This document shows positions 8,868 to 63,040 of a stretch of DNA of 64,000 bases, piece after piece; the first letter of the stretch is position 1; each line of letters opens with the position of its first letter. The notes below the pieces were generated by a model, which saw only the letters and a program-made list of their open reading frames with translations, was not told the origin of the DNA and ran no database searches. This stretch comes from a virus (lineage: Duplodnaviria > Caudoviricetes). The position numbers were made by a program, and so were the translations under genes. The stretch lies in IMG/VR virus record IMGVR_UViG_3300005656_000005, positions 1 through 64,000 of that record. One strand, written 5' to 3'.

Positions 8868-8895
8868 AGCCCGGAGTAGTTACCGGGCTTTTTTT
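8868..8895 (+). terminator. Intrinsic terminator at convergence of early and late transcription
   Basis: AGCCCGG-agtagtta-CCGGGCT followed by a T run. Confidence 0.8.
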
Positions 8896-9349
8896 ATTTA
8901 CTTATTGGGGTAAAATATAATTTCACTTCTCTTTTTCTCCTGCCAATTATTTCTTTGGGCTTATTCCACATCATAAATGCGTTTTCAATGCTTTGATCTG
9001 ATGCCCTTGCATTAATCCTCCTTAGTAAAGTTGATTTTTTAAAAGCCTGTTGCCCTACATTGTATGTAAATGAAACTAAGGCATCAAATTGGTTTTGGTT
9101 TATATCATCCCTTGTGTTGGTATAGACTGTTAATTCAAACTGCCTTAATACCCATTTAAACAACTCCATAGCACGTTTTTCAGTTATTGGATGGTCAGTC
9201 ATTTTAACCCTGCTGCCATCTTCGTAAAATGTATTGCCTACTCCGATAGTGGGAATACCCACAGTATCCAAATAAGGCTTTAACCTTACACCTTCACTTT
9301 GCATTAAATGCTTTATACCATTTTCAGACATTGATTTTATTTCTGTCAT
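8894..9349 (-). CDS. Endolysin, phage lysozyme (GH24)
   Basis: EGVRLKPYLDTVGIPTIGVG with E-x8-D-x5-T triad; QNQFDALVSFTYNVG; GRRKREVKLY. Confidence 0.95.
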   Translation of the reverse strand: MTEIKSMSENGIKHLMQSEGVRLKPYLDTVGIPTIGVGNTFYEDGSRVKMTDHPITEKRAMELFKWVLRQFELTVYTNTRDDINQNQFDALVSFTYNVGQQAFKKSTLLRRINARASDQSIENAFMMWNKPKEIIGRRKREVKLYFTPISK

Positions 9350-9481
9350 ATTACATTTTTTAATTAAACAATAAAATAAGAGGTAAGCAAATGGTTATTC
9401 ATAGGTAATGACTTTATTTCATCATTATACAATATGTATTTAGAAGAACCTGATACCATAAAGTTGTATTTGGTGAATAAA

Positions 9482-9886
9482 TTATTTTAGAAAAATAAAT
9501 ATTGCTGCCGTTACTCCTGCTGCCCCAATGGTTGCAAAAACTGTTTTACGTTTCTGCCTTCTGTACTTTTTGTTTTGAGCCTTCATTTCCTTTACTGCTA
9601 TATCTCTTTGGTTTGTTAGGTTTATTAATTCATCCTGATATGTTTCTATTACTTTTGCTACTGCTGTATCTTTTTCTGTGTGGGCTTTTATAATACCATC
9701 TAATATGGCTATACGCTGATTAAGGATAGTTACTCTTTCAGCATCTATCTTACCTTTTTCAATTAACTTAACTGCATTACGCAACCAATCATTTTCAATA
9801 ATCGTTGTCGGTTTGGTTTGGGAGATTGCGGAAATACTCACGCAACTCATTACTACCATAATTGTTAATAGCTTTAGCCTTTTCAT
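9482..9886 (-). CDS. Putative outer spanin-like exported coiled-coil protein
   Basis: Signal peptide with possible lipobox VMS-C, coiled coil, C-terminal hydrophobic helix; overlaps upstream TM/coiled-coil gene. Confidence 0.55.
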   Translation of the reverse strand: MKRLKLLTIMVVMSCVSISAISQTKPTTIIENDWLRNAVKLIEKGKIDAERVTILNQRIAILDGIIKAHTEKDTAVAKVIETYQDELINLTNQRDIAVKEMKAQNKKYRRQKRKTVFATIGAAGVTAAIFIFLK

Positions 9887-10175
9887 TATATTGATTATTA
9901 AGATTTTTACTTTTCAGATCGTTTAGTAATAAGGAATCTTTTTGAGAACGGATAAATTCATCTTTACTGTTTACTACTTCCTGCCATGCCTTTCTTTCCT
10001 GTTCAATTAATATTCTATTTTCTTCTTTTAATTTTAATTCCTGCTTAACCATATCAAGTGAATGGTCTTTTTTAAGGGATTGGAAAAATACAATAGCTAA
10101 TAGGATTACAACCACACAAAAGGCTGCTATCCATAACTGCGTTTTATTATCCTTTACCCATTTAGATATATTCAT
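9795..10175 (-). CDS. Putative inner spanin
   Basis: N-terminal TM helix plus coiled coil, in lysis cassette. Confidence 0.6.
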   Translation of the reverse strand: MNISKWVKDNKTQLWIAAFCVVVILLAIVFFQSLKKDHSLDMVKQELKLKEENRILIEQERKAWQEVVNSKDEFIRSQKDSLLLNDLKSKNLNNQYNEKAKAINNYGSNELREYFRNLPNQTDNDY

Positions 10176-10264
10176 GATTTGCTTTTTACTATCATGTACA
10201 AGATGATACCTATCAGTATAATGATAAGTGCTGTTTTGGTAAATAATTTTCCTAAATCAATCAT
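10172..10264 (-). CDS. 30-aa single-TM peptide (not in ORF track)
   Basis: MIDLGKLFTKTALIIILIGIILYMIVKSKS; start and stop overlap both neighbours (TAATG, ATGA). Confidence 0.6.
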   Translation of the reverse strand: MIDLGKLFTKTALIIILIGIILYMIVKSKS

Positions 10265-10542
10265 TACTCTGTTTTTGTTTCTTCTTTTTGGGCATCCTGC
10301 GCCTTATCGGGAGTCCCTTTAATTATGGATGCAATTTGTGCAACCGTTGCTACCCCACTCATTATAAGTATAAACACCATAGTAGCGACAATGATATTGT
10401 ACCTGCCACCATCATTATTTGCACTTACTATGGCATAAATTATTGACCATCCTAAGATAGCCGCAATACTTACGCTTATCCATCTTTTATGACTTACTTT
10501 TCCTCCTTCCATAAACATTGATATTAAAAAGTTTTCTTTCAT
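10264..10542 (-). CDS. Putative holin
   Basis: 92 aa, two TM helices, charged C-terminal tail, near endolysin. Confidence 0.65.
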   Translation of the reverse strand: MKENFLISMFMEGGKVSHKRWISVSIAAILGWSIIYAIVSANNDGGRYNIIVATMVFILIMSGVATVAQIASIIKGTPDKAQDAQKEETKTE

Positions 10543-10547
10543 AATTA

Positions 10548-10787
10548 TTATTTTTTAAAATGTTTTAATTGTTCTTCAATTATAGGTATCCTGTCGCACT
10601 TTAATTTCATACTTTTTATTTCCTCTTTCATTTCGTGCATATCCTCTGCCATGTATTTTATGGTAATATTTTGCGTTAAGTCTTCTTTTCGTTCAGCTAA
10701 CAATTTACTAACCCACCACATAATTCCGCCCCCTAAGAACGTCAGCACCCCAATTACAAACATCACCGCTTCAGTGTTTATATTCAT
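10548..10787 (-). CDS. Single-TM coiled-coil protein (holin/antiholin-like)
   Basis: N-terminal TM then coiled coil. Confidence 0.5.
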   Translation of the reverse strand: MNINTEAVMFVIGVLTFLGGGIMWWVSKLLAERKEDLTQNITIKYMAEDMHEMKEEIKSMKLKCDRIPIIEEQLKHFKK

Positions 10788-11268
10788 GAGTTCGGGTTTT
10801 TAAAATATGGTTATCAATCTTGTTTTCAATTTTATTATCCCAATCCTGCAAGGCTTCTTTACAAGTACCGGTAGAAAATAAACTGCTGAAAAAAGAAATT
10901 ATTAAACTCAATCTGCAAAACGGATACTTTTTAACATAATGCCATAAAGTAACAACAATTGCCAGTAAACCCGTTGTTATCTGAAAAACAATATTATAAA
11001 CATCATCCTTTTGGATAACAAGATAGTAAACTGCAAATAATAATTCAGCAAATGCAGCCCACCTACTAACTGAACAAAACTTGAACATCAGTGTAAAGAC
11101 AACTAAAAAAACCGCAAATAATACATTAGTTCCTACGAAAGTATTCAGATAAAACCCGTTTTTAAAGTACCATTCAGGATTGACAAAATACATGATATTT
11201 GCGGCTACCTGTGCTGCCACTAATATAATCGGGAAATATATTACAAATAGTTTTATTTTCTTCTTCAT
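10771..11268 (-). CDS. Multi-pass membrane protein
   Basis: About four hydrophobic segments. Confidence 0.65.
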   Translation of the reverse strand: MKKKIKLFVIYFPIILVAAQVAANIMYFVNPEWYFKNGFYLNTFVGTNVLFAVFLVVFTLMFKFCSVSRWAAFAELLFAVYYLVIQKDDVYNIVFQITTGLLAIVVTLWHYVKKYPFCRLSLIISFFSSLFSTGTCKEALQDWDNKIENKIDNHILKTRTHEYKH

Positions 11269-11459
11269 GAATGGGTTTTTATTGTTCCTACTGTACCACC
11301 TCCGACAATAGATGCAGTTTGTTGAGCAGCTTCCAATGTATCATATTCAATAGCATTATCCAAGTTCCCGAATAACGATTCTGATGGTTGACCAGCATTG
11401 TACCCAATAAGATACATATCTGTTCCTTCAATCTGTACTACATAAGTGTCTTGTCTCAT
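11265..11459 (-). CDS. Hypothetical protein (probable start MRQDTY)
   Basis: Start at 11459 removes overlap with upstream gene. Confidence 0.55.
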   Translation of the reverse strand: MRQDTYVVQIEGTDMYLIGYNAGQPSESLFGNLDNAIEYDTLEAAQQTASIVGGGTVGTIKTHS

Positions 11460-11574
11460 TTTCTTTGATTTTTTAAACTGAATAATTATTTTTTCAACAA
11501 TATCATATTTTTTTATTGGTTTTTCATAAACCTTAAACTCCCTGTTTCTTGCATCGCCAATGGTTAGTCCTTTT

Positions 11575-11949
11575 CTATAAACTGAATCCATTTACGGGTA
11601 TATTATAAGGCCATACAATCATCCACGGTTTGCCCAATGGCTGCTTATTGGATGTTAGAAACTTTACTGTCGCTGACCTGTTACAACAATCTGTTTTCAT
11701 AACTACAAATCCATCCAATGCAACAAAGGTATTTTTTACCAATCCTTTTCTTACTGCATACCCACCAACAGGAATAAGGGTTGAATCATACCCCTTTACA
11801 TTACCCCATGCCAAAGTTCCATTTGCTTTACGGTAATCGTAATAACGGGTTGAATCTAACACCGGAAGTATGCAGGGAATGGTATCATAGGATTGTGCCT
11901 GCATACCACCGAAGAACATAAGAAATAATAATGTTAATAGTACTTTCAT
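11575..11949 (-). CDS. Exported protein with signal peptide
   Basis: MKVLLTLLFLMFFGGMQA|QSYDTI, cleavage before Gln. Confidence 0.7.
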   Translation of the reverse strand: MKVLLTLLFLMFFGGMQAQSYDTIPCILPVLDSTRYYDYRKANGTLAWGNVKGYDSTLIPVGGYAVRKGLVKNTFVALDGFVVMKTDCCNRSATVKFLTSNKQPLGKPWMIVWPYNIPVNGFSL

Positions 11950-11950
11950 A

Positions 11951-14164
11951 TTAATTTATAATTTGATATTCTAAATAGCTTATGCCGCCAATGGCTGTTA
12001 TAGCCGATGCCGATATTTCGCTGGCAAACCTTACCTGCACATCACCGTTAGCCGATGGTAATATTTCGCCTTCAATTACACAACGGTTATTGGTTGTTAC
12101 TGAACTGGCGTTACTGGCGGATGGCAGGTTATAAGCACCCAATGTGTTTATTGTCGCCGCTGCTGCCGTTGTGTTGTATGTACTTCGGTAGCTTATATCT
12201 GTAACTGCCGGGCCGTTCACCGTCCAGCGGCTGCCGGTTGTTGTGGCTGCTGAATTATATACCACCACCACCTTGAAACTGTACCGTGTACCTGCAACCA
12301 CCGGAAATGTTAATCCGGTAACGTCTGCAAGGGTATTGGCTGATGCGTTATTGTTGATGACGTTATCAGGGAGCCAAACTCTTGTTACCCCGGTTACGTT
12401 TGGTATTGCCGACCGTATTGCTGCGGCTGTGTCATCCAATGCCTGCTGTGTTATTCCTCCACCGCCAACTATTCCTGTAAGTGCTGAACCATCCCCGTAA
12501 TATTTTACAGCGTGAACGTCTTTAAACCTGTTGCCTGCACTTCCCAAATCAATAACACCGTTACCACCATAATCTTTAAACACCGTTGAATTAAGAACCA
12601 TCTGAACCCCGTTTACCCCGTAATATAAATTACCTCCCTGCGACCAAAAATAAGCATTGGAATTACCTGCTGCCTGTAAAGAGATAACACCGGCTGTACC
12701 TGATGTTTTAAATTGTGCCAATGTACCGTTCACAGTACTTTCCATTGTAAACGGATGGATAATATTTGCCACGTCTGAAACCCCAATACCGAAATTACCG
12801 CCGTAAACATTTGTCTTGCCGCTGAATGTCATTGTTCCCTGATTGCGGAATATTTGACCGAATGATGAACCCGCACCACGTACACCGGCAAATATTATTG
12901 AACGGGTATTTAATGATGGCATTGGCTGATCTCCTTCCACATAAGGGCTGTACCATTGTGAAGTACCTGATGGATGTGTTGACGCAAATGCCCCGCCTGA
13001 CCAATAATGTTTTGCGTTATCCCACGGCGTTGCTGCCTGTGCTTCAACCACCGTCCAGTATGTAGGAAATAAATCGGGTTGCTTATTAATACCACTGCCA
13101 TCATCATGCAGGAAAGTTGCTGTGTAATACCCACCGTTAAAACTTACTGTGGTGGCTGTCCCTGCTATGGATGCGTTACTATTTGCAGCGAATGAATTTG
13201 AATAAAAGTTATTACCTAAAAATCCGTTATCCAATATTCCCCACCGTTTGTTTTGCATGGCATCGCAGTTATGAAATGTTATGTAGTTGGCATCACATCC
13301 GTTAGTACGAAAGCCATGCAGGGCAAAATTAACTTTGCAGTTGGTTACCAATGAGAAATCAACACTACCGAATATAGGGTTGTTTGTGCTATCCCCCCCT
13401 GCACACCCTTCTAAATTTATCCCTACACCTGATGCCAATGGGATATATATATTATCTAAGATAACCTTGCAGCGAATGTCAATCAAATGCTTGTTGCTGT
13501 CTATTGGTTCAATGCTGTATGTATTTTTTAATTGCAGATTTCTAATTTCAGAAGTAAAATCATATTGGTATTCATGTATGGCAATGCCTGTTGTATTCCA
13601 CGGGAAAGTAAGTATAGCTGATGGCAAAGTATATACTCCACCACCACCTTTAATCTTTATGCTTTCAGTAAAAAATAAAGTATATGTAACTGCATATTCA
13701 CCTGCCGGAAAATAAAGCCATTCAAAACTTTGTCTGTGTGATAACAGATAATTCTTTGCGGCTGTTATTGCGTTCCAGTTCTCAATACCTGTACGGGCTG
13801 CACCTGCACCGTACCAACGTACATCCATATTAACACCCGCCTGCCGCTTCCATTTATTGTTATTGGCATCTGCGAATATCATTCCGTTATCTGCTGCATC
13901 ATTGCCCGAATAAGGAAAGAATGTACCGCCCCGAATTGTGTCGTTTATAAACAATGCTGTTGCTGCGCCGTTGTAACTTCCAATGGCTTCAATGGTTGAT
14001 AGTGTTGCTGATGATGCGCTGCCGGATGCTTGGTTGCTGATCCGGGTAGAATCACCACCTATTTTCAGCCATAATTCTGTTCCGTTAATTACAAGTATTT
14101 TTGGTATTGTGTCCTGCGCTGTTAAGCACAACGGGAACAAAAGAATTATTAAGGCTGCTTTCAT
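11951..14164 (-). CDS. Tailspike/depolymerase-like beta-helix protein with signal peptide
   Basis: Start at 14164 gives MKAALIILLFPLCLTA|QDTI; DVRWYGA...LYFPAGEY is the pectate-lyase-3-like beta-helix entry motif. Confidence 0.75.
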   Translation of the reverse strand: MKAALIILLFPLCLTAQDTIPKILVINGTELWLKIGGDSTRISNQASGSASSATLSTIEAIGSYNGAATALFINDTIRGGTFFPYSGNDAADNGMIFADANNNKWKRQAGVNMDVRWYGAGAARTGIENWNAITAAKNYLLSHRQSFEWLYFPAGEYAVTYTLFFTESIKIKGGGGVYTLPSAILTFPWNTTGIAIHEYQYDFTSEIRNLQLKNTYSIEPIDSNKHLIDIRCKVILDNIYIPLASGVGINLEGCAGGDSTNNPIFGSVDFSLVTNCKVNFALHGFRTNGCDANYITFHNCDAMQNKRWGILDNGFLGNNFYSNSFAANSNASIAGTATTVSFNGGYYTATFLHDDGSGINKQPDLFPTYWTVVEAQAATPWDNAKHYWSGGAFASTHPSGTSQWYSPYVEGDQPMPSLNTRSIIFAGVRGAGSSFGQIFRNQGTMTFSGKTNVYGGNFGIGVSDVANIIHPFTMESTVNGTLAQFKTSGTAGVISLQAAGNSNAYFWSQGGNLYYGVNGVQMVLNSTVFKDYGGNGVIDLGSAGNRFKDVHAVKYYGDGSALTGIVGGGGITQQALDDTAAAIRSAIPNVTGVTRVWLPDNVINNNASANTLADVTGLTFPVVAGTRYSFKVVVVYNSAATTTGSRWTVNGPAVTDISYRSTYNTTAAAATINTLGAYNLPSASNASSVTTNNRCVIEGEILPSANGDVQVRFASEISASAITAIGGISYLEYQIIN

Positions 14165-14172
14165 AAAATGTT

Positions 14173-17031
14173 TTACAATGATGTTATAGTTTCCCATGCG
14201 CTACCTGTATAAACACATAGCTTATGCAATGTGGTATCGTAAACAATCAACCCCTCTGCCGGGCTGCTGATTGCGTTTTTCTGTGTCGTGGTCATTCGTG
14301 GTGGCAGCCATCCTTTTGTTGTAGATGAACTTTCCATAATTGCAGATGCCACCGGCGCAGCCGTACCGCCAACAAATACGCCGCTTGTTGTATTCATGGA
14401 TATTGCTCCGTTTGCCGTTACCCTTAACGTACTGCTACCTTCAATTATTCCCCAGCCAATTTGAATATTTGCAGTTTCATTCAATGCCAATATCTTCAAT
14501 CCATGACTTCCTGTATTAGTAGGACTTTTAATCGTTAAGCCATGATTTGCGTCTATGGTTGTTGGTGCAAGGATACCAACACCGCCAACATCATTTATAC
14601 GCATGGCACGAATAGCCCCGTTATTACCCACAAGGAAATCCATAAACGAACCTGTTGTACCTGCGCCTGTTGTTGTCTGAAAATTTAAATCGGCTGTTGT
14701 GGAAGTACCTCCGATAACCAACGGTACAAAAGCACTTGTACCCAAATAAGCAGTCCTCCACATTAAAGAAGCACTACCCAAATCATCTGTATTATCTGCA
14801 TCACTTATAAGGCTTGTATTTATTTCTGTTGGAACGGCAAGGTTTGAAAGGGCTGTGTTTGCCTTACCGTCAATCTGTGTTTGAATAGCACTCGTAACCC
14901 CCTTAACATAACTTAATTCAGTTAATGATGGATAAGTAGCAACTGCCAATGAACCAATAGAAGATGCCCCTGTACCATATACAAGTTCATTAGTTGTAAG
15001 CGTACCTGTTATAGTTCCTGTACCTGTTGCAGTTAATTCCCCACCTGATAAAGATAAACCACTACCTACTGTTATGTAGCCTACGTGACCCCTATCTACT
15101 CCGGCTGTTTCAACCCATCCCATTAATGTATTTTGGGCTGTGTTGTTGGTGAGTGTGTCAATGTCTAAATGCCCTAACCCCGGATTAATTGATATTGAAT
15201 CTTCATAAATTGCTAAATTACTAAACCTTGTACTGCCCGCTTCAAAATTTATATAGTCTGCCAATGTAATCTCAAAAAGGTTCCCATCCGCATCTACAGT
15301 ATTATCAGTCGTCAACGTACTTCCTGCTGTAAGTGTTTGTTGCCATGTGGGGGTAGAGCCGACAACTGAACCTTCAATAATATTCCCACTTGCATCTACT
15401 TGTAGGGCATAGGTTGGCGTTCCTGTATATGAACCTACTCCATATCCTCTTGCATTTAATGAACCCTTCAACAGTGTTGAGGTTACATTGTCATTACCCA
15501 ATACAACCTGATTGCTTGCAAAGCCTCTCGCATCATAACCAATAACAGTCATATTTTGTAAAGATGTTGTATATGGTATGCTGCTATCACGAGAAGCATT
15601 ACTGCCTAAAAAAGTAACTGCTGTATCATATATGCTTGCAAAATTTGGGTAAGTATCTCCTAAGTGATAGCCTGCCCTGCTTCCAATAGCAGTATTCTTA
15701 TAACCCATGTGCTTAACACCTAAAGCGTATAACCCCCACAATGTAGAATCTCCGATGGCAGTATTATGAGTTCCATCACTCCAGTATAACGCATCTAATC
15801 CTACTCCTACATTATGGTCACCGACAATGTTACCGTACAAAGCATCAAACCCAACTCCTACATTAGCAAACCCTGTTGTATTAGTCCACATAGTTCTCCC
15901 GCCGATTGCTGTATTTCTTGTACCTGTTGTATTGAATTGAAGTGTGCTAAATCCAAGAGCTGTATTTCTCCATCCAGTTGTATTCCAAAACATAGAAAGC
16001 GAACCAACTGATGTGTTATCATAACCAGTTGTGTTTCTTTGAAAACTGTATGCACCAATAGTTGTATTTTCATATCCTGTTGTATTAGTATTGCCGTTCC
16101 ATGCCCCTATTGCTACATTTCGATAACCAGTTGTGTTTGAATACAAAGATGAATCTCCTATACCTAAATTACCAGTACCGTAAGGCCCTGTACTGCCTGT
16201 CAATGTAAAGTTTCCACTTTTTCTACCTATAAATAAATTACGACCAGTTTGCGAAAAATTCGCTCCGGGTAAAGAAAAATCGTGAATAAACCTATCTGAA
16301 CCTTTAAAAATTACACCAACTGTACTATCTACTGTTGCCGGTATATTTATTCCGCCAGTTGAAAATAACCTTAACTGTTCAGCGTTATTAGTTTTTATAA
16401 TTAAATCATTCGCATTGGTTGTACCAAGAAATTTACCACTTGCATTATTATTTCCGTCTAATGACCAGGCAGAATCGGAAACAACAATAGGTGTACCACC
16501 CCCACCGCTATATTGAGTTAACCTATTTCCGTTACTTGGGTCATAGCCCAACCCTACTGTTGTGCCACTTTCTGCCAATATCCCTGTACTATCTAATATA
16601 AGTCTTGTCAAGGCTCTTGTTTTGAATAAAATACTATTGCCACTAAGTGTTCCAAATGTTAGATCATCTACATCATTAGCCCAAGTATTTCCTACAGTCA
16701 ACCATCCTACATCCCCTGTACTGCCTCCTGACGGAAGTAGTTGAACCCATTTTTGTATAGCTAAATACCGATACCAAATTGCTACTATTGGTGTTGTGGT
16801 TTTTATCATAGCCCCGTCATACCATTTAATATACAGATTAGCATTTGCGGCTGTTGTATCAGTATATGTTGGAAGTATAAGTCCGACTGTTGGTTTTACT
16901 CCACCGTTAATTGTATATAAAAAATTATTGGCATTAGGATTACCAATACTCCCATTAACGGGGAATAATACTTGTGCCTTTACAGAAAACATTAAGGCAA
17001 TTAGTATTGATATTAAAAATAATTTTTTCAT
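14173..17031 (-). CDS. Fibre/adhesin protein with NTTG/NTAxG repeats and signal peptide
   Basis: MKKLFLISILIALMFSVKA|Q; 14-aa repeats NTTGxxNTAxG; C-terminal KGWLPPRMTTTQKNAISSPAEGLIVYD motif of Bacteroidota fibre proteins. Confidence 0.8.
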   Translation of the reverse strand: MKKLFLISILIALMFSVKAQVLFPVNGSIGNPNANNFLYTINGGVKPTVGLILPTYTDTTAANANLYIKWYDGAMIKTTTPIVAIWYRYLAIQKWVQLLPSGGSTGDVGWLTVGNTWANDVDDLTFGTLSGNSILFKTRALTRLILDSTGILAESGTTVGLGYDPSNGNRLTQYSGGGGTPIVVSDSAWSLDGNNNASGKFLGTTNANDLIIKTNNAEQLRLFSTGGINIPATVDSTVGVIFKGSDRFIHDFSLPGANFSQTGRNLFIGRKSGNFTLTGSTGPYGTGNLGIGDSSLYSNTTGYRNVAIGAWNGNTNTTGYENTTIGAYSFQRNTTGYDNTSVGSLSMFWNTTGWRNTALGFSTLQFNTTGTRNTAIGGRTMWTNTTGFANVGVGFDALYGNIVGDHNVGVGLDALYWSDGTHNTAIGDSTLWGLYALGVKHMGYKNTAIGSRAGYHLGDTYPNFASIYDTAVTFLGSNASRDSSIPYTTSLQNMTVIGYDARGFASNQVVLGNDNVTSTLLKGSLNARGYGVGSYTGTPTYALQVDASGNIIEGSVVGSTPTWQQTLTAGSTLTTDNTVDADGNLFEITLADYINFEAGSTRFSNLAIYEDSISINPGLGHLDIDTLTNNTAQNTLMGWVETAGVDRGHVGYITVGSGLSLSGGELTATGTGTITGTLTTNELVYGTGASSIGSLAVATYPSLTELSYVKGVTSAIQTQIDGKANTALSNLAVPTEINTSLISDADNTDDLGSASLMWRTAYLGTSAFVPLVIGGTSTTADLNFQTTTGAGTTGSFMDFLVGNNGAIRAMRINDVGGVGILAPTTIDANHGLTIKSPTNTGSHGLKILALNETANIQIGWGIIEGSSTLRVTANGAISMNTTSGVFVGGTAAPVASAIMESSSTTKGWLPPRMTTTQKNAISSPAEGLIVYDTTLHKLCVYTGSAWETITSL

Positions 17032-17052: not shown

Positions 17053-17412
17053 TTATGCTAAGACTATTGGTTCGATGTCTGTTTGGTTAATGTCCCCAAC
17101 TAAATCTACTGATAAAGAAATCACATTTGGCACTTCCGCCCAGGCTCTTATAGATTCATCTGTGCTTATTATTCTATCAGTAACCTCAATTGTTATGGTA
17201 TCATTTGCAGGAACGGTGGCAAAACTTAAAACTGCTCCGGCAATAAATAATCCACTTGGTACAACAAACCCTAAATGCACTTTTACATCCGTATTCGATG
17301 TATTACAAAGGGTAATATTTACAGCTTTGACCTCTGAACCATACAGATCATTCCAGTTATAGAATATCTCTGTTTCGGTATTCGGTAATAATGTTTTTAC
17401 GGTTGCTGCCAT
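17053..17412 (-). CDS. Small beta-sandwich structural protein (possible fibre adaptor)
   Basis: 119 aa, beta-rich, immediately upstream of fibres, no signal peptide. Confidence 0.5.
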   Translation of the reverse strand: MAATVKTLLPNTETEIFYNWNDLYGSEVKAVNITLCNTSNTDVKVHLGFVVPSGLFIAGAVLSFATVPANDTITIEVTDRIISTDESIRAWAEVPNVISLSVDLVGDINQTDIEPIVLA

Positions 17413-17443: not shown

Positions 17444-19444
17444 TTATCCACACAAAAACGATAAAACGCCTCCTAATTCTGGGTTCTTTTTTCTCACCTT
17501 CCTGTTCATTATCTTCATTGCCCCGATTAAGGCTTGTCCCCATGCCATTGTAAGGTCATTTTTATGCGTATCTTTTTTATTGAATTTCAGCATATCTTCT
17601 AACAATGGCAAGAACCAATTTTGTTCTAAATGGTACTTATCTCCTTCGTGCAATGGAGTATTTGTAATGCTATTTAATAGCATTATCATTTCATCCATAA
17701 AAGCATTTTTACCTCCACTTGGAGCATCACCTTTTACCAATGAGTTTTGTGGCAACCCTATTTTGGATAACATCCAATCAATGTAACCCCTGTCTTGAAA
17801 GTAATCTACAATGTTTGAGTTCTTATTTTCTACCTGAACCATAGCCCTGTTAAATACTGCGGCTTTTATTGCATCTTCATAAAATATTTCAGGGTGGCTT
17901 GGCCGGTTACTGTAAATCATTGTTGGGCATTTATAAATACCCGTTTCAAAAAAGTCTAAGAACTTATGATTTACCATTGCTCCATTTGAAAGCCTGTTAC
18001 CTGATGTGTGTCTTTTATCATAGGGGTCAATGCCCAATGAATTACCAACTATTATTGGCGGCATTGGGATTCCATCACTATCTCTTTTTAACGGGTCTTT
18101 TTCATGCTCTAAAGGGATATAGCTGTAACATACTCTTGCGTTATCAACATTAAATTCTGTGGCATCTGACATCCTCCAAACCACTTCTGAATCAACTACT
18201 CCATCCTTCCATTCGTGAATACCGTAAACCGTAATTGGTTCATTTGTTTTTGTGTCTTTTACTTTACTTCCTAAAAGAAGGATATTTCTTTCAGCTATAC
18301 CTTCTGTATTATCCCAAATTCTTACCTGATCTGTACTGCCAAACATCTCATGCTCATTAAGCGGCAAAGCCCTTATTTCACTCATTAAAAACTCTTTTGG
18401 AATAGATTTCCTGTCCTGCATTATTTTTGCATAAATATCCTCTGCATCTGCATCACCCCATTTATCATACATACCTTCAATTCCTTCCAATGGATTTGAA
18501 TAATATCTGAATACTCTTGTTTTAGTTGAACCGGCCTCTGTTAATTCATCCGGGTTACTACCCTTCCAAAATTCAAAGGCTTCATCATTATGCTTTCCTG
18601 ATGTATCTGCGGGAGAAGAAAATATATCAAATATTCCTTTTCGTTCTGTTCCAGGTGCAATGAATTTCTGATAGTTTAAGAACGTAGCGTAAAAACTACA
18701 TTCCTCCCATTTATTCACTTCATCCAATACGCACCTTCGCATATTATTCATGGAATCAAATACATTGTGTCCTGATGCTCCATAAGTAAGTAAAATATCC
18801 CTGCCCTGATGGGTGTCGGTAGCCGTACTTACAAATTTCATTTTTTCAGCGATCTTATCCCCACTGGCAAAATCGGCAAACAGAATATCCTTTACCCATT
18901 TATCCATACTGTTCCATCCCATTGTTAAAACTCTCCAGCATGAGTTCATAACAGTATCCCTTGTCTTTGATTGAATACCTACTGATGCAAAGTCCATATT
19001 ACCTATGGCTGATTCCCAAAGCACATCACTCATGCTTATGGTTGTTTCACCGTCCTGCCGGTTTTTGATTGTATAACTTCCTATGGCTCTTGGATTATTT
19101 CTTACCCTTAGTTTATGGTAAACCTGCTTTAATCTTTTCAATCTAAATTCAGGATAACCAGATCCCATTCTGAAATTCTGTAAAAAAAAGTAATAGGATG
19201 GTGGCAACCAAACAGGCATCTCTTTTATGAAAATCCAAACTCCTGTCTTTAATATTCTGGTTACTTCCTGCTGCTTGTATCTTTCTGTAACTACATCCGG
19301 CACTACCCTTTTCCAAACACATTCTTCCGGTGGTTTATCCCAATTAATTATTTCCTCCAATCTTGTAGGCGCAGTTTTCCAAACATCCTTGTAGTCAAGG
19401 ATATTGAATTTAACTTTAAAGCCTGTTATTGGGTCTGCTTTCAT
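17444..19444 (-). CDS. terL: Terminase large subunit
   Basis: KNRQDGETT Walker-A-like, RCVLDEVNKW Walker B, IFSSP coupling motif, GIDPYD and DLTMAWG nuclease motifs. Confidence 0.9.
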   Translation of the reverse strand: MKADPITGFKVKFNILDYKDVWKTAPTRLEEIINWDKPPEECVWKRVVPDVVTERYKQQEVTRILKTGVWIFIKEMPVWLPPSYYFFLQNFRMGSGYPEFRLKRLKQVYHKLRVRNNPRAIGSYTIKNRQDGETTISMSDVLWESAIGNMDFASVGIQSKTRDTVMNSCWRVLTMGWNSMDKWVKDILFADFASGDKIAEKMKFVSTATDTHQGRDILLTYGASGHNVFDSMNNMRRCVLDEVNKWEECSFYATFLNYQKFIAPGTERKGIFDIFSSPADTSGKHNDEAFEFWKGSNPDELTEAGSTKTRVFRYYSNPLEGIEGMYDKWGDADAEDIYAKIMQDRKSIPKEFLMSEIRALPLNEHEMFGSTDQVRIWDNTEGIAERNILLLGSKVKDTKTNEPITVYGIHEWKDGVVDSEVVWRMSDATEFNVDNARVCYSYIPLEHEKDPLKRDSDGIPMPPIIVGNSLGIDPYDKRHTSGNRLSNGAMVNHKFLDFFETGIYKCPTMIYSNRPSHPEIFYEDAIKAAVFNRAMVQVENKNSNIVDYFQDRGYIDWMLSKIGLPQNSLVKGDAPSGGKNAFMDEMIMLLNSITNTPLHEGDKYHLEQNWFLPLLEDMLKFNKKDTHKNDLTMAWGQALIGAMKIMNRKVRKKNPELGGVLSFLCG

Positions 19445-54423: not shown

Positions 54424-54765
54424 TTAATTCTGCAACTTAGTCAACCACCCTTTTTTATTCTCTTTTATTTCTTCTTTAAGGTTAGATTCTTTTTCAGGTG
54501 GTGCAAATCCCATTTCAATTAATACTTCCTCTGTCTGAATTTCTACGTCCTGTTTTTCTGCTATCTTTTTTTTAAGATATTTCATTAATGGCAATTCCCA
54601 TCTTGGAGGTAAAGGCCGTTTTGTATTTTCCTGCAACCCTCTTAATAAAACACTTCTACCTATGCCCACTTCTTTTTCAATTCTAAAAACAGGGATTCCG
54701 CTTTCAGAAACTAATTGTGAAATCAATGGAATGTTTGCAGGTTTCTTTTTTTTAGTCTTTTCCAT
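54424..54765 (-). CDS. Putative XRE-like HTH protein
   Basis: LVSESGIPVFRIEKEVGIGRSVL resembles an HTH. Confidence 0.5.
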   Translation of the reverse strand: MEKTKKKKPANIPLISQLVSESGIPVFRIEKEVGIGRSVLLRGLQENTKRPLPPRWELPLMKYLKKKIAEKQDVEIQTEEVLIEMGFAPPEKESNLKEEIKENKKGWLTKLQN

Positions 54766-55336
54766 AAATCGGTCTGCCTATAAGATGTGAACTATAATCA
54801 CAGGTCATAAAATTATTGTCGCTTTTACTTCCATCCTGGTAACAAACAAACTTGTCGCAGATCATGTATTTATGAATATTAGCGGTAAGCCCTAAATGCC
54901 TATCAAGATGAATTGATTCAGGTAAAGATAAATAGAAATCGTAAAATGATTCATGTACTATGTAAAGGGTTAAGCTACTGAATAAACTTGTTATCCTATT
55001 ATTTAAAATTGTTCCGGCATAAATCATAGCATGGTAGGTATGAAATTCATCTGGCATTTTTTCTAAAAAATAATCCCATGCAAGTTTGCCATCTGGTGAT
55101 TTAAAGAACAAAATATCATCCTCCGCAATACACACCATTTTGTACCCATTATCTTTTGCATCCTGTACGATTTGCCGGTGGGCTAAATGCACTCCACGTT
55201 TTCTATCGTGCCTATCAATTATACCCTCCCAAAATTTTATGTAAAACCCTTGTTCTTTTGCCTGTTGCTCTGCCTGTGATTTTCTTTCCTCCCGGTGCAT
55301 TAAATTAATCACATTTACTGGCAATTCTTCTGTCAT
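54752..55336 (-). CDS. Glycosyltransferase, GT25-like
   Basis: VINLMHREERK, GVHLAHRQI, IAEDDILF, HIDRH-like LDRHL. Confidence 0.8.
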   Translation of the reverse strand: MTEELPVNVINLMHREERKSQAEQQAKEQGFYIKFWEGIIDRHDRKRGVHLAHRQIVQDAKDNGYKMVCIAEDDILFFKSPDGKLAWDYFLEKMPDEFHTYHAMIYAGTILNNRITSLFSSLTLYIVHESFYDFYLSLPESIHLDRHLGLTANIHKYMICDKFVCYQDGSKSDNNFMTCDYSSHLIGRPIYGKD

Positions 55337-55406
55337 TTTTATATGTTTTACGTCACATTTTGTATTTGTGACAGCATCCTATTGTTTCCACACCTTACCA
55401 CACATC

Positions 55407-55461
55407 AAAGTACTATGTAGTTCAAAGCTAAACTAAGTATAAAGCACTATGTAGTTCAAAG
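55407..55461. repeat. 21-bp direct repeat x2
   Basis: AAAG(T/C)ACTATGTAGTTCAAAG at 55407 and 55441. Confidence 0.85.
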
Positions 55462-55465
55462 TACT

Positions 55466-55732
55466 TTACGATACATTGTTCTTTGGCTTTAAACTGTCTA
55501 TTTTACGGTTTATTTTTTCTATTATTTCATCGTACTCAACATCTGTAAAATCTTTTTCAAAGTACACTTGTAGTTTTGGGAATTTAATGTTATGGTTTGG
55601 GAAGCATAGCCAGTAATAATCAGGCATCATTTTATTGAACGCTTGTATTATTTCAGAAACTCCTTTTCGTTCACCGTTTGATTCATCAAACATGAAGTCA
55701 GGATAGTAGAATAGTGCTATTGGTTTTGCCAT
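55466..55732 (-). CDS. Hypothetical protein
   Basis: 88-aa ORF coupled to GT25. Confidence 0.65.
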   Translation of the reverse strand: MAKPIALFYYPDFMFDESNGERKGVSEIIQAFNKMMPDYYWLCFPNHNIKFPKLQVYFEKDFTDVEYDEIIEKINRKIDSLKPKNNVS

Positions 55733-56364
55733 TATCTGTCTTGTTTTAATTTTTTAACTTCCGATTCATACCTTGTTTCCAAAAACCTACTCCAATCTGT
55801 GAACGCTTTCCCTATGTCTGAATAATCAGGTTTTTGAGTGAACAGCATTGGGTATGAAATGAACACTTTTTTATTGGGTTGAAAATCCCTTACAAGGCAA
55901 TTATCTACCGGCTCATTTATTGTTTTACTACAAACAAATTCCATTGCTTTTTTTGAATATGCAGTAGCATGGGTAGCATACATAATTCTTACTGGCAATA
56001 GATTTTCAGAATGGAATTTTTGTAACCCTGATGCACAGTTACCACCCAAATAAAATAAAGCCCAATCTTCGGGTAGCTGATCTATGCACTTATCCATTGT
56101 TTCATTAAATGTTTGTGCATCTACAAGTGGTAAAATATCATCTTCAAAAACCAGGCATCTTTCACCACCGGCTGCAAGTACTTTTCTAAAATACCTTTGC
56201 ATACTATCTACTAATCCCTGGCATGGGAAATCAGGGTTATCGGTTGCCTTCCATAGTTGATAATTAACCCCAAATAGTTCCATAACTCCTTTTGCTGATT
56301 CTAACCTGTCAGTTCTTTTTTCAAGATTTATAAGGGCTATATGTTTAAAGTAATCATGCCACAT
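55732..56364 (-). CDS. Glycosyltransferase, GT25-like
   Basis: INLEKRTDR, CLVFEDD, WALFYLGG, YATHATAYS, TQKPDYSDI. Confidence 0.85.
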   Translation of the reverse strand: MWHDYFKHIALINLEKRTDRLESAKGVMELFGVNYQLWKATDNPDFPCQGLVDSMQRYFRKVLAAGGERCLVFEDDILPLVDAQTFNETMDKCIDQLPEDWALFYLGGNCASGLQKFHSENLLPVRIMYATHATAYSKKAMEFVCSKTINEPVDNCLVRDFQPNKKVFISYPMLFTQKPDYSDIGKAFTDWSRFLETRYESEVKKLKQDR

Positions 56365-57004
56365 TGCTTTTCTTATTTCGTTTTAGTAATTGATCTCCCC
56401 AACCCCAATGCTCATAAATAAATTCTTCTACAGGTTCATAATCGTACTTGGAAAGATATTCTTCGATCTCTGGTTTTAAAGCACACCCTTCATAAACTTC
56501 TTTTGTATTTGTTTCTAAATATATGGCATCGAAATTATTCAATAAGTCACCAGCACCTTTTAGAACAAATATCTCTGCCCCCTGCGTATCAATAGCAAGC
56601 AACCACCCATCTCCTATTTCTACACCAAGTTCTTTTAATACCGTTTGCAATGTTTTTGTTTTTGTTTCAAAGTGCCTAACATAAGAAACTTCTGGGTGCG
56701 CTGTTTTATGAAAACCAAGTTGCAAGTAAGATGAACTTTGACCTTCATTGTTTGAAACATTAAATACTACATCCTTCCCATCTACTTCTCCTAAACAGGC
56801 ATTAACACCTATCTGAAATGGATACGGTTTAAGGTTTTCTATAAGTTCATTATAAATTTCCTTTACCGCTTCAATCCATATTACTTTTTCAATTCCCAAA
56901 TCTGCATAGGCTTGTCTTTCTTGTCCACTGCTTGAACCGCAATGAACTATGCCTTTAATATTCAGGTTATGGCGTGGCAGTAAATCTTTAAATTCTATTA
57001 GCAT
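56354..57004 (-). CDS. FkbM-family methyltransferase
   Basis: IVHCG, WIEA, FNVSNNEGQSSS, IDTQGAE, YLETN. Confidence 0.85.
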   Translation of the reverse strand: MLIEFKDLLPRHNLNIKGIVHCGSSSGQERQAYADLGIEKVIWIEAVKEIYNELIENLKPYPFQIGVNACLGEVDGKDVVFNVSNNEGQSSSYLQLGFHKTAHPEVSYVRHFETKTKTLQTVLKELGVEIGDGWLLAIDTQGAEIFVLKGAGDLLNNFDAIYLETNTKEVYEGCALKPEIEEYLSKYDYEPVEEFIYEHWGWGDQLLKRNKKSNVA

Positions 57005-57005
57005 C

Positions 57006-57386
57006 TTATTTTATTTTTTTATAGATTTCAACAGTTAAGTAATCAATTAGGTAAGAATAGGCTTCATCACTTTCCTCTACTACCAATTTCATTCCTATTC
57101 TATCCATGACAAATGTTACTGCATGGAATATTTCGTGTTGTAAATTACCATAATCTTTAGGTGTGCCGGTAAATTTAACCAAACGTATTAATGTCTGATT
57201 TGTAGAAAACATTACCGTTCTCCCTTGCACCGTCTTGCTCGTTATTGTTGCCATAGATATATCATCGGCAGATAAATTGTACTTTTTAAAATGCTTATCT
57301 ATTTCTTCGTTAGTTTCCCCAAAAGAAACCATTACATCAAATGGATAAATAACTAATGGTATTATAAAATTTAATTTCTTTTTCAT
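57006..57386 (-). CDS. Phage protein with HExxH motif
   Basis: LQHEIFHAV...DEAYSYL. Confidence 0.6.
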   Translation of the reverse strand: MKKKLNFIIPLVIYPFDVMVSFGETNEEIDKHFKKYNLSADDISMATITSKTVQGRTVMFSTNQTLIRLVKFTGTPKDYGNLQHEIFHAVTFVMDRIGMKLVVEESDEAYSYLIDYLTVEIYKKIK

Positions 57387-57922
57387 TTTTTTATTATTAA
57401 AGCCCCGGCATCTTCCAATTTATTTTCAGGTATCAAATGTATTTCAAGGCCATTGGCTTCTGCAAATTCTTTTACTGCTTGCTTAACCCCGTATGCAGGA
57501 TTTTCATAATCGTGAAACGCCATTACTCCACCCGGAACTAATTTACTCCAATAGGCGGGTATATCCCCACTCACGCCTTCGTATGAATGATTACAGTCAA
57601 CGTATGCCAATCCCAATGTACCATCTTCAATGTAATCAGCCATTTCTACTGATAGTCCACGAAGTACTGTTACATTTTCTTTAAACGGTTCAATTCGTTT
57701 CATGGCATCGTCATAATTTTTATCATGCCAATCCTGGTGGTTGTTTCCATCTCCGGTTATTCCTAATATTTTACCCCAGTTATCAACCATGTATAATTTT
57801 TCTATGCCATTGGTTAAAAGTTCATGGGAGTTATACCCTTCTGCACATCCGATTTCTGCGGCTGTCTTTGGCAATCCTAACTGCTTTAAAAGACTTGGTA
57901 ATTCTCTCCTATAAGTTATCAT
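57383..57922 (-). CDS. Class I SAM methyltransferase (Methyltransf_24-like)
   Basis: AAEIGCAEG, YVDCNHSYEGV..D...W..LVPGG.MAFHDY; start set at MITYRR. Confidence 0.85.
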   Translation of the reverse strand: MITYRRELPSLLKQLGLPKTAAEIGCAEGYNSHELLTNGIEKLYMVDNWGKILGITGDGNNHQDWHDKNYDDAMKRIEPFKENVTVLRGLSVEMADYIEDGTLGLAYVDCNHSYEGVSGDIPAYWSKLVPGGVMAFHDYENPAYGVKQAVKEFAEANGLEIHLIPENKLEDAGALIIKK

Positions 57923-58562
57923 TTTCGTTTTTTTTATACTTGTTATAGATATAATCAAAAGTCTTTCCCCTTACTAAAGCGTTTTTTATATTCATAAATT
58001 TGGTATTTAATAAAATAGCCCAATCTTGAATACATAAATTAAGCCCATTATATTCAATATATACATTACTCCTTCTGTTTCTATTTTGATTGGGGCGTGT
58101 ATCCCATTTACAATTTTCAGGGCTATATTCTTTATCATTATCTACTCTCTCTAAAGTATGTTTTTCGCTTGGCTTATCGCCCATATCTAAAATAAAATTT
58201 TCAAAACTTGAAATCCATCTATCACATACAAATATTCCTCTCGCTCCGTAATCAGGATATTGTGGATGATTAGGTCGTCCACATCTTGCTTTCATATTAC
58301 ACCAAGCATTATATTCAGATGTTGTGAATGTTAATGTATGGTTGCCATGATGCGTATGAATCAATTTTGCCATTTCTCCTATTCCACAACCGCATGATTT
58401 AGTTAATCCCCTTTTTATATTTCTTGCAAATATATCTTTAACTTTTCCACAGTCACATAGGCATTTAAACTTTACTTCTTCCCCTTTTTGAAATGGCAAC
58501 AATTCTAATATAATTAATTTGCTAAATCTTTGTCCTACAAAATTAAAATAGTCTGGTTTCAT
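57909..58562 (-). CDS. HNH-type homing endonuclease-like protein
   Basis: GQRFSKL..CLCDCG..TKSCGC..WCNMKARC..YGARGIFVC..LERVDNDKEYSPENCKW. Confidence 0.85.
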   Translation of the reverse strand: MKPDYFNFVGQRFSKLIILELLPFQKGEEVKFKCLCDCGKVKDIFARNIKRGLTKSCGCGIGEMAKLIHTHHGNHTLTFTTSEYNAWCNMKARCGRPNHPQYPDYGARGIFVCDRWISSFENFILDMGDKPSEKHTLERVDNDKEYSPENCKWDTRPNQNRNRRSNVYIEYNGLNLCIQDWAILLNTKFMNIKNALVRGKTFDYIYNKYKKNENDNL

Positions 58563-58684
58563 AAAAACAAAATCCTGCAAACAGAAGGTAAATCACAATC
58601 AGTTTTAAGTGAAGGTGCATCTGCTTACAGGAATTTATCGTGAATAATTTCATAACTGAACTGTGATTTACAACACTAATATAG

Positions 58685-59476
58685 TTATTTTTTTAACTCG
58701 TGCCAATTAAAATTTAAAGGGTCAAAATCATCTATCTTATCGGTAAACCAATATATTGAATTTTCTTCGTTTCCATTAAGCCTTGCGAAGTTTGAGTATA
58801 TGGTCATTCCGGTTCCAATATTTGACATATTATCAATCTGCTTTGCCGAACCGCCAACAAAAGTAAAGCAGTTTAATTCAGGCTCTATAATGATACAGGC
58901 GTGATCTATACCTATGGAACGGTGCATAACACTATCCAACATATCCATTACCTTTTGAACCGATTCTCTTTTTATTATCCAGCAATGCGTACTGAAACAA
59001 CCCAGAACTCTTATCACTCTTGGGTCGTCTGTTAATTCTGCGTCCCTTCCAATATTGCTACCATTTAGCATATACCCATTCCCATTGTGCCAATGCGGGG
59101 GATTGCAGTGGAATAAAGCACCTCCAAAAAATATATCCCAATCGTGTGTTTCAAAAAACTTTTCCATGTAATCAATGCGTTCTTTGAAGTCAGTAGCCAT
59201 CACAACATCGTCCTCTAAAACGAAACAGTGCTTATTTTGTTTAATTGCTTCTACCATCATTTCCCGCATCCCCATCCAACATCCGACAGCACCAGGAGTT
59301 CGCCCAGCCATTACCTTAAACCTATGCTCGGTCATATCGTATTCTTCTGGCAACTTACCCCTTGTTCTTCCGGCAACTAAACCGACACGATATAATTCTT
59401 TTTCAATATGCTCCCTGCGGTCTAATCTTTGGTCAAGGTTTAAATAAGAAATGTAGCAATCATCAAGTAAACTCAT
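58685..59476 (-). CDS. Glycosyltransferase, GT25-like
   Basis: LNLDQRLDRR, GAVGCW, FVLEDD, WDIFFGG, FSTHCW, QIDNMSNI. Confidence 0.85.
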   Translation of the reverse strand: MSLLDDCYISYLNLDQRLDRREHIEKELYRVGLVAGRTRGKLPEEYDMTEHRFKVMAGRTPGAVGCWMGMREMMVEAIKQNKHCFVLEDDVVMATDFKERIDYMEKFFETHDWDIFFGGALFHCNPPHWHNGNGYMLNGSNIGRDAELTDDPRVIRVLGCFSTHCWIIKRESVQKVMDMLDSVMHRSIGIDHACIIIEPELNCFTFVGGSAKQIDNMSNIGTGMTIYSNFARLNGNEENSIYWFTDKIDDFDPLNFNWHELKK

Positions 59477-60195
59477 TGGATATAATTTTTAAATGCTGAA
59501 TAAACATTTTTAACTTCCGACTTTAATTTATCGGCTGCATTTGGATACCTGATATTAAACCTCCCCCTCCATTCTGCATCAATTGGTTCACGTAATCTTT
59601 CAGGTAATGAAATTATGTAATCATCCGTTATGGTAGAATAATTATGTGGGTAAAGGGTTTTTAATTTAATAAATATTTCATGAATAGAAGGCCATTCTGT
59701 AGGGTTAAGCGGTGCAGGTGGTTGTCCTAAAAATAAACGGGCATCATCAATGATTATTATTGCATCTGCCTGATACCTTGCTATTGCATCCAGTTCTTCC
59801 ATTAATGGACATTCTGAAAATTGACTTTGGTTTGGTTCGGGATCGCTGTAATGCGAATCAATAAAAAACATGGCATAGTTATAAACCGGAACATCCTTAT
59901 CCGGCTGTGGTATCTTATTTTTTTCTGCAATTAAACCATCAATTATTTTTGGTAACAGATCAACGGTGTGTCCGGTAAGCCATGTTACGTTTTCAATGGT
60001 TTCATCTATTACTGCACGATTTTCTATTAACTCAATTGTTATTACTTTTTCAAAATGCTTTGCAGCTATTCTTGTACTATCTCCACCGGCTGTACCACAC
60101 TCCACTAATGTTGGTATCTCTACATAGTGTATAAGATGATTAATCAAATACATCGGTATGCCGCCAGTATTAACCCCATTTAACTCGTATCCCAT
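59473..60195 (-). CDS. SAM methyltransferase-like protein
   Basis: LVECGTAGG, TIEL, FFIDSH, IIIDDARLF. Confidence 0.7.
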   Translation of the reverse strand: MGYELNGVNTGGIPMYLINHLIHYVEIPTLVECGTAGGDSTRIAAKHFEKVITIELIENRAVIDETIENVTWLTGHTVDLLPKIIDGLIAEKNKIPQPDKDVPVYNYAMFFIDSHYSDPEPNQSQFSECPLMEELDAIARYQADAIIIIDDARLFLGQPPAPLNPTEWPSIHEIFIKLKTLYPHNYSTITDDYIISLPERLREPIDAEWRGRFNIRYPNAADKLKSEVKNVYSAFKNYIQ

Positions 60196-60206
60196 AATTT
60201 ATGTTT

Positions 60207-61630: not shown

Positions 61631-61640
61631 AGTTATTCGT

Positions 61641-62627: not shown

Positions 62628-63040
62628 ATTATTTTATTTATTATTAAAAATCTTCTGTGAACTGGATGTGTTTTTGTGGGTATTGATTCATAAAATTTCC
62701 CGTTCTTAGGAACTTGGTTTACCGATACCGAAAACACAAGTGAAACAGTATGCCTTTTATTCCCTTTTTGTACCTCTCTTGGGAACTCCATAAATCCTAA
62801 CAATTTTGGAACGTAAACCCGTATCCCCATTTCTTCTTTTGCTATTCTGTTTATTGCTGAACCTATGCTTTCTCTGAATCTTATCCTACCTCCGGGCAAA
62901 TGCCACTTTCCTTTATATGGCTCAATATCCCTTTTTATCAAAAATACTTCACCTGCTTCAACCAATAAAATATCCACACATACCCTTGTTGACTTTGAGT
63001 AAATAAAGTTATAGTCTTTATCGGATAAATAGCCACTCAT
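62624..63040 (-). CDS. Nudix hydrolase (GDP-mannose hydrolase-like)
   Basis: EPYKGKWHLPGGRIRFRESI...AKEEMG. Confidence 0.85.
   Translation of the reverse strand: MSGYLSDKDYNFIYSKSTRVCVDILLVEAGEVFLIKRDIEPYKGKWHLPGGRIRFRESIGSAINRIAKEEMGIRVYVPKLLGFMEFPREVQKGNKRHTVSLVFSVSVNQVPKNGKFYESIPTKTHPVHRRFLIINKII

Follow-up and report, generated by a model that had tools for sequence, protein, structure and literature searches.

Tailed-phage assembly is conventionally described as wholly cytoplasmic, and to our knowledge no phage tailspike carries a Sec leader. Here we describe three consecutive genes, encoding a 952-residue trimeric fibre, a 737-residue tailspike-like protein and a 124-residue small protein, whose products all begin with a leader of the signal-peptide type followed by Gln (Table 1). 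The genes lie in a window of 64,000 nucleotides, the whole stretch of DNA analysed, which is the first 64 kb of the 77,238-bp IMG/VR virus record IMGVR_UViG_3300005656_000005; the record bears inverted terminal repeats. The source appears to be an uncultured podovirus infecting Bacteroidota, linked distantly by its terminase to the Cellulophaga phi18:3/phi13:2 group. Its terminase is 20–24% identical to those of Flavobacterium elemo podoviruses, Cellulophaga phi38:1, phi40:1, phi18:3, phi13:2 and phi46:3, and Maribacter and Tenacibaculum phages, whereas similarity to one gut crAss-like phage is weaker. Judged from sequence, the three genes would constitute a receptor-recognition module (a trimeric fibre, a putative enzyme with a tailspike-type beta-helix, and a small partner), in which the host-recognition proteins probably mature in the periplasm rather than in the cytoplasm.

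In Bacteroidota, Gln occupies position +1 after signal peptidase I cleavage (the Q-rule; Bochtler et al., 2018, PMC5837995; PMC10653852), and because this rule is specific to Bacteroidota the host is placed in that phylum. For the same phylum, an O-glycosylation sequon, D-(S/T)-(A/I/L/V/M/T), and its restriction to periplasm-exposed proteins are established (PMC8550257, PMC8729774, PMC12871550). Q-rule proteins have been reported from Porphyromonas gingivalis prophages, five of them of unknown function, and were read as envelope modifiers (PMC10367356); these have a leader and Gln as here, but are not fibres or tailspikes in a virion module. The Cellulophaga phage phi18:3 (KC821620.1, Pachyviridae) encodes gp085, gp086 and gp087 (547, 785 and 559 residues), each starting with a leader that Gln follows, and the record annotates all three as 'structural protein' from experimental tandem mass spectrometry (MS/MS) proteomics, leaders being unmentioned there. 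These are large leader-bearing proteins, three in a row as at the present locus, encoded just upstream of lysis genes in a podovirus with a terminase 22.5% identical to that described here; they lie upstream of the terminase gene, whereas the three proteins here lie downstream. The order seen here (terminase, small protein, fibres, lysis) matches gp19–gp30 of crAss001 (NC_049977.1), where terminase and portal precede a 97-residue head fibre and five fibres or spikes, a tailspike-type enzyme among them, with lysis genes last. The mosaic adhesive trimer (MAT) fibres of Bdellovibrio bacteriovorus are chromosomally encoded and displayed on the predator's own surface (Caulton et al., 2024, PMC10769870); by description, they share with the present fibre a signal peptide, a conserved beta-rich N-terminal domain, a trimeric phage-fibre-like shaft and exchangeable tips.

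Table 1. Features of the leader-bearing module and of other loci named in the text (positions of the window; the last row lies beyond its end).
Feature	Coordinates	Strand	Remarks
Large terminase subunit	17444..19444	-	PHROG 6681 match; synteny anchor
119-residue leaderless protein	17053..17412	-	Between terminase and fibre; 116–117 residues in L007, L014 and L015
952-residue trimeric fibre	14173..17031	-	Leader 16975–17031; repeats and PTL_trimer; nine sequons, one Cys
737-residue tailspike-like protein	11951..14164	-	Leader 14117–14164; beta-helix model; five sequons
124-residue small protein	11575..11949	-	Leader 11896–11949; three sequons in ~106 mature residues
DTIP-x-IL entry	11896–11949 and 14060–14116	-	Motif shared by the 124- and 737-residue proteins
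Lysis cassette	8894..11591	-	Directly downstream of the leader-bearing module; holin candidates, spanin-like protein, phage lysozyme
Small membrane proteins	10264–11268	-	165, 79 and 92 residues; holin/antiholin candidates
134-residue spanin-like protein	9482–9886	-	Adjoins the lysozyme gene
Phage lysozyme	8894–9349	-	End of lysis cassette
Phage glycan cluster	54752..63759	-	FkbM-type and other methyltransferases, GT25, GT11, GT2, NAD-dependent sugar epimerase
GT11 (fucosyltransferase-family) gene	60875–61630	-	Within glycan cluster
Four small early-gene open reading frames	68559–69554 and 74122–74391		72–129 residues; leader- or lipoprotein-like N-termini

Conserved leaders on three adjacent genes

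Leaders were called by a crude rule of our own together with conservation among homologues. The predicted cuts fall at VKA/Q in the fibre (leader residues 1–19), LTA/Q in the tailspike (1–16) and MQA/Q in the 124-residue protein (1–18). Lys occupies position 2 in all three (positions 2–3 in the fibre). Kyte–Doolittle means of the best 10-residue stretches are 3.0–3.25; the Met at −3 of the 124-residue protein is atypical for a signal peptidase I site. The 737-residue protein is counted from its second Met, its frame opening 11 codons earlier, at 14197. The original prediction, made from the DNA sequence, had described three consecutive genes with Q-rule signal peptides, and its coordinates, the form of the leaders and the Ala–Gln junctions are all reproduced.

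The leaders are widely kept in related phages, and in the same slot. Leader and +1 Gln are present by the crude rule in all 18 homologues of the fibre N-terminal domain, and among tailspike homologues (30–83% identity) in 17 of 20 by rule and 20 of 20 by eye. In the family of the small protein, 38 of the 44 representatives pass the leader rule and several of the remainder bear a lipoprotein box (lipobox); for full-length fibre homologues, the figure is 88 of the best 119. The tailspike homologue P0122, although 83% identical overall, has a quite different leader followed by an identical mature start. Because the leader sequence drifts while the charge, the hydrophobic core, the small −1 residue and the +1 Gln persist, the leaders are best understood as selected, cleaved signals, and the three N-termini are very probably genuine export signals for Sec and signal peptidase I.

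The three genes follow the terminase gene and a conserved gene for a 119-residue protein and precede the lysis cassette, in a tightly packed operon (gaps or overlaps of 21, 8, 1 and −17 nt). An independent moron was considered and rejected, given that each gene overlaps or closely adjoins the next at these spacings (−17 to 21 nt). Every informative related contig that was fetched carries leader-bearing large proteins in the fibre slot (L003–L007, L014, L015 and L017), whereas the upstream tail genes of these relatives have no leaders. In L007 (terminase 58% identical), L014 (77%), L015 and L017, the leader-bearing proteins come directly after the terminase or a gene for 116–117 residues; in L003 and L004, they follow a giant virion protein and precede the endolysin; and in L005 and L006 (44-kb, siphovirus-like), the leader-bearing protein is the last gene of the tail module, with a 4-nt overlap with the leaderless tail gene upstream. 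One or two small leader-bearing genes follow the fibre in all six contigs that have sequence downstream. A second set of leader-bearing proteins in the terminase-downstream slot (L014, L015, L017 and the proteins P0136 and P0141) has in common the mature N-terminus Q-FPNN...QGS, which suggests another conserved post-cleavage module.

It has to be considered whether these N-termini are non-functional for export, being either relics of capture from a host, as in the captured adhesin gene that the original prediction offered as its simpler alternative, or uncleaved hydrophobic segments that dock the proteins in the tail or tether them to the inner membrane. Bacterial homologues are very numerous, and fibre gp22 of crAss001 uses its residues 1–26 to dock in the tail hub (Bayfield et al., 2023, PMC10172136); the N-terminus of gp22, however, is not hydrophobic. 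G+C content is 41–43% over the fibre and tailspike genes (12001–16000), against 33–38% in most of the genome, and may reflect either a Gly/Ala/Thr-rich composition or acquisition, the latter of which would fit a relic; the capsid region at 52–54 kb is the only other part with similar G+C. Against both forms of the idea, leaders in three families drift while keeping charge, core, small −1 residue and +1 Gln in nearly all homologues, and every contig that encodes a homologue of the tailspike or of the fibre N-terminal domain is ≤74 kb long. We regard a non-functional leader as very improbable, and the captured adhesin is disfavoured with it.

As to destination, type IX secretion (T9SS) cargo was a candidate and was rejected: the C-terminal sorting domain (Por_Secre_tail/TIGR04183 or type B) is found in none of the three proteins with Pfam and NCBIfam. 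Because this domain is absent, the periplasm is the default end-point.

Fibre, tailspike and small protein: identity and place of action

The 952- and 737-residue proteins can be assigned to the fibre and tailspike classes with high confidence. Residues 286–457 of the fibre, which form YadA-head-like repeats, match phrog_4636, 6002 and 23837 (tail spike and virion structural PHROGs). At its C-terminus is PTL_trimer (PF26696, 'phage tail like trimerisation', foldon-like), a domain that is on record for the identical fragment P0001, although our local Pfam copy gave no PTL_trimer match to the fibre; this C-terminal motif also matches cyanophage tail-fibre-like proteins. The Peptidase_S74 C-terminal chaperone, present in many homologues, was not found on the fibre in a Pfam scan. 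The N-terminal domain (approximately residues 20–190) is common to 18 proteins, encoded only on contigs of ≤73 kb, and is joined to varied C-terminal parts (BNR sialidase-type, pectate-lyase-type and S74), so that the protein has the modular build typical of tail fibres. Homologues of the fibre as a whole number thousands; many are encoded in Bacteroidota chromosomes and end in an S74 chaperone or T9SS region. By sequence, neither the fibre nor the tailspike family had relatives in the PDB; when the tailspike, or residues 1–290 of the fibre, served as tblastn query, no cultured phage was matched; and single-protein IMG/VR queries returned one fibre relative and none for the tailspike or the terminase.

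For the 737- and 124-residue proteins, Pfam, PHROGs and NCBIfam scans gave no family match. The fold of the former rests on an alignment-based AlphaFold run (20 homologues), as the run with its sequence alone was unusable (predicted local distance difference test, pLDDT, 32.5). The alignment-based model comprises a short N-terminal segment, a right-handed parallel beta-helix (residues ~50–430, pLDDT ~90) and a C-terminal beta-rich part, and the family alignment contains invariant Asp, Glu and His columns. In Foldseek searches, many tailspikes match this model at probability 1.0, those of Klebsiella, Acinetobacter and CBA120 at E 2e-10 and below; the matches include the Klebsiella K2-2 tailspike protein (TSP; 8IQ5, E 2.4e-10), those of Acinetobacter AM24 (5W5P) and Fri1, Depo32, and the CBA120 TSPs. 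The bacterial protein WceF of Pantoea stewartii, a glycan-modifying enzyme with a tailspike fold according to the title of its entry (6TGF), is also among the best structural matches. The 737-residue protein thus has the same right-handed parallel beta-helix as phage tailspike depolymerases (8IQ5, 5W5P, and CBA120 TSP4, 5W6H) and WceF, but its sequence identity to them is 8–14% and its N-terminal segment is very short. Presumably, WceF is itself exported.

The 124-residue protein belongs to a family of leader- or lipobox-bearing proteins of 110–175 residues that are encoded after phage fibre genes. In L013 (1–3035), a leader-bearing homologue of the 124-residue protein follows leaderless fibre-like proteins of 279 residues, 269 residues (with a phiTE_241_C domain) and 195 residues (SPRY), so the small protein is not tied to exported fibres. 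Two of the three contigs consulted for the context of the small protein were ~1.2 kb long and uninformative. Behind the leader-bearing fibre of L006 comes a lipobox protein comparable to it in size and N-terminus, whose leader by eye resembles those of lipobox members of the family; the 124-residue protein itself has no lipobox. An ESM Atlas search with the latter yielded sub-threshold leads only. Because a homologue follows leaderless fibres and some homologues have lipoboxes, the 124-residue protein is unlikely to be a virion appendage by itself; it may be a fibre partner or, by analogy, may instead block a receptor in the manner of T5 Llp or Cor. Its position and size would fit such a receptor-blocking protein; this copy has no lipobox, unlike some homologues, and it gave no family match. 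Just past the cleavage site, its mature N-terminus and that of the 737-residue protein share DTIP-x-IL, a motif that is itself a sequon and is widely kept across the family of the small protein; it could be a common docking strand. The original prediction had cast the three as receptor-binding proteins, either joined to virions at lysis or displayed on the infected cell. Class and slot support a fibre and a tailspike for the two large proteins, whereas the L013 context and the lipoboxes speak against a virion appendage for the small one.

We put the probability that the proteins are incorporated into virions after maturing in the periplasm at roughly one in two. Late in infection, the three Sec precursors would be co-expressed with the terminase and lysis genes and threaded into the periplasm, where signal peptidase I would cut before Gln and host glutaminyl cyclase would cyclise the exposed residue. 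Folding and trimerisation would follow in the periplasm, with probable O-glycosylation at part of the sequons, while particles would be assembled fibre-less in the cytoplasm. On the reading that we favour, the fibre and spike would join the particles once the action of holin and endolysin has made one compartment of two, no later than the opening of the outer membrane by the spanin, a time of attachment that we purely infer. Until lysis, polysaccharide of the infected cell itself may also be trimmed by the spike in the periplasm.

Several observations weigh against this course of events. The fibres of phi38:1 and gp22–gp26 of crAss001 have no leaders, so export is not needed for the fibres of Bacteroidota podoviruses. 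The phi18:3 record supports virion-borne leader-bearing proteins by analogy but is not conclusive: no sequence similarity could be detected between gp085–gp087 and the present three proteins, and a protein that mass spectrometry finds in a purified lysate is not thereby proven to be attached to the virion. Only ~35 low-confidence residues separate leader and beta-helix in the tailspike, which is short for a particle-binding domain. In language-model features, the fibre N-terminal domain resembles the PTL_trimer region behind bacterial surface-fibre leaders (score 0.91, a lead only), and it may be a trimerisation module rather than a virion anchor. Moreover, we know of no precedent in tailed phages for attachment after the compartments merge.

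Alternatively, the proteins may be exported but never virion-borne, and act on the envelope of the infected cell. The beta-helix enzyme would then trim nascent capsule, extracellular polysaccharide or O-antigen in the periplasm, and this destruction of the receptor would keep progeny from being trapped and block superinfection; the fibre would act like bacterial surface fibres, and the small protein would mask a receptor like T5 Llp or Cor. An envelope role is in keeping with the leader-bearing fibre homologues, thousands of which are encoded by Bacteroidota and some of which have a T9SS or S74 C-terminus; with the structural match to the bacterial glycan-modifying WceF; with the build of the Bdellovibrio MATs (leader, ~130-residue conserved N-terminal domain, variable tip); with the L013 homologue behind leaderless fibres and the lipoboxes of several others; and with the reading of the P. 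gingivalis prophage Q-rule proteins as envelope modifiers (PMC10367356). On the other hand, several phage lineages encode the leader-bearing proteins where tail fibres belong, in genes that overlap or abut upstream tail genes, and those of phi18:3 are recorded as virion structural. The three proteins also lack the T9SS C-terminal domain and the lipid anchor by which they might reach the cell surface. Within the 77-kb genome, no further open reading frame could be recognised as fibre- or spike-like, but most virion proteins match nothing; ten of the other large ones, scanned against PHROGs, gave no match, hence annotation leaves room for other fibres. We consider a purely envelope-directed role possible but rather unlikely. 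The overall interpretation advanced beforehand therefore holds for the leaders, for the fibre and tailspike classes and, as set out below, for a sequon excess relative to other late proteins, but probably not for the 124-residue protein as an appendage of its own.

Sequons and the phage glycan cluster

Sequons were counted in the mature chains and compared with composition-matched shuffles (2000). The counts of the original prediction (nine, five and three, with three of the six Asp of the small protein falling in sequons) are exactly reproduced, against expectations of 4.5 for the fibre (p 0.03), 2.2 for the tailspike (p 0.07) and 0.30 for the 124-residue protein (p 0.002). Pooled, the three chains hold 17 sequons versus 7.0 ± 2.4 expected, approximately a 2.4-fold excess that none of the 2000 shuffles reaches. 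The other 24 late-operon proteins are flat (30 observed, 32.7 expected), as are the leaderless crAss001 fibres gp22–26 (16 versus 13.5). Family-wide, sequons number 109 versus 54 for the tailspike, 75 versus 12.8 for the small protein and 117 versus 66 for the fibre N-terminal domain, counts that are not independent. Three or four of the five tailspike sequons are conserved in the family.

We give glycosylation of the three proteins about even odds. The excess could instead be a by-product, owed to conserved structural motifs and to beta-rich fibres being rich in Thr, Ser and Asp, an explanation that touches glycosylation only and that is quite plausible, if somewhat short of probable. The best-conserved sequons lie in conserved structural motifs, as with D75 of the tailspike beside the invariant R78, G79 and G80, and the family-wide counts, being interdependent, fit such a by-product as well. 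N[ST][AILVMT] is also enriched in the three proteins (23 versus 12.3), owing to the repeats of the fibre, and the shuffles are thus an imperfect null for a repetitive fibre. Furthermore, the leader-bearing gp085–087 of phi18:3 (L009 4144–9836) are depleted in sequons (3 versus 9.7 expected), and glycosylation is therefore not a general companion of leaders. A by-product fits less well with the specificity of the signal: neither the reversed motif (5 versus 7.0) nor the Glu variant E[ST][AILVMT] (5 versus 2.9) shows significant enrichment, and D[ST] with a non-permitted third residue is depleted (4 versus 9.7). Among the 27 late proteins, the excess is limited to the three with leaders, and tailspike position 75 holds a permitted sequon in all 20 aligned sequences, variously DTI, DSI, DTV or DTL. 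Enrichment over shuffles is, accordingly, upheld for the pooled chains and by the contrast with other late proteins, and qualified by the enriched Asn variant and by the tailspike taken alone.

For the glycan cluster that had been placed at 54.7–63.8 kb as a possible means of tailoring such a glycan, it is the gene content that was corroborated, with GT25, GT11, GT2, methyltransferase and epimerase domains found. No leaders were detected by the crude rule among the open reading frames of the cluster. Loci for protein O-glycosylation in Bacteroidota commonly include fucosyltransferases of the GT11 type (PMC8698959). A link between the cluster and the fibres is possible, and the phage fucosyltransferase-family and methyltransferase genes might retune the glycan of the appendages.

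Neighbouring genes and biological meaning

The leaderless 119-residue protein has the same position as the crAss001 head fibre gp21, although BLASTP found no similarity between the two. Downstream of the module, the 134-residue protein begins with a segment resembling a leader or lipobox (VMSC, then AIS/Q), has a transmembrane helix at its C-terminus and looks like a unimolecular spanin; spanin-like lipobox proteins also precede the endolysin in L003–L006 and L014. The three small membrane proteins encoded between the leader-bearing module and the spanin and lysozyme genes are holin/antiholin candidates and gave no family matches. The four small early-gene open reading frames beyond the end of the window are, from the appearance of their N-termini, candidate envelope-directed accessory proteins.

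A literature search found no paper on export signals of tailed-phage tail fibres or tailspikes. Phage-encoded Q-rule proteins are already known; at the present locus, the tailspike fold and the sequon contrast are unusually clear. That widespread tailed phages of Bacteroidota have appendages that are Sec-exported, pyroglutamate-capped, O-glycosylated by the host and fitted to fibre-less particles at lysis is a tentative proposal, and in this complete form we hold it doubtful. If true, it would amount to a two-compartment assembly pathway and to glycosylated virion proteins, neither of which is known to us for Caudoviricetes. The question is directly testable in Cellulophaga phage phi18:3, which can be grown.

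If these leaders on proteins that decide host range are functional, the folding of the fibre, its disulfide and glycan status and the capping of its N-terminus would depend on Sec, signal peptidase I, glutaminyl cyclase and the O-glycosylation system. Such dependence would bear on host-range prediction, on the heterologous production of Bacteroidota phage depolymerases and on phage engineering, and the envelope machinery of the host would be a new point of resistance to infection. Virions may then bear host-type glycans, which would be relevant to the ecology of gut and environmental phages.

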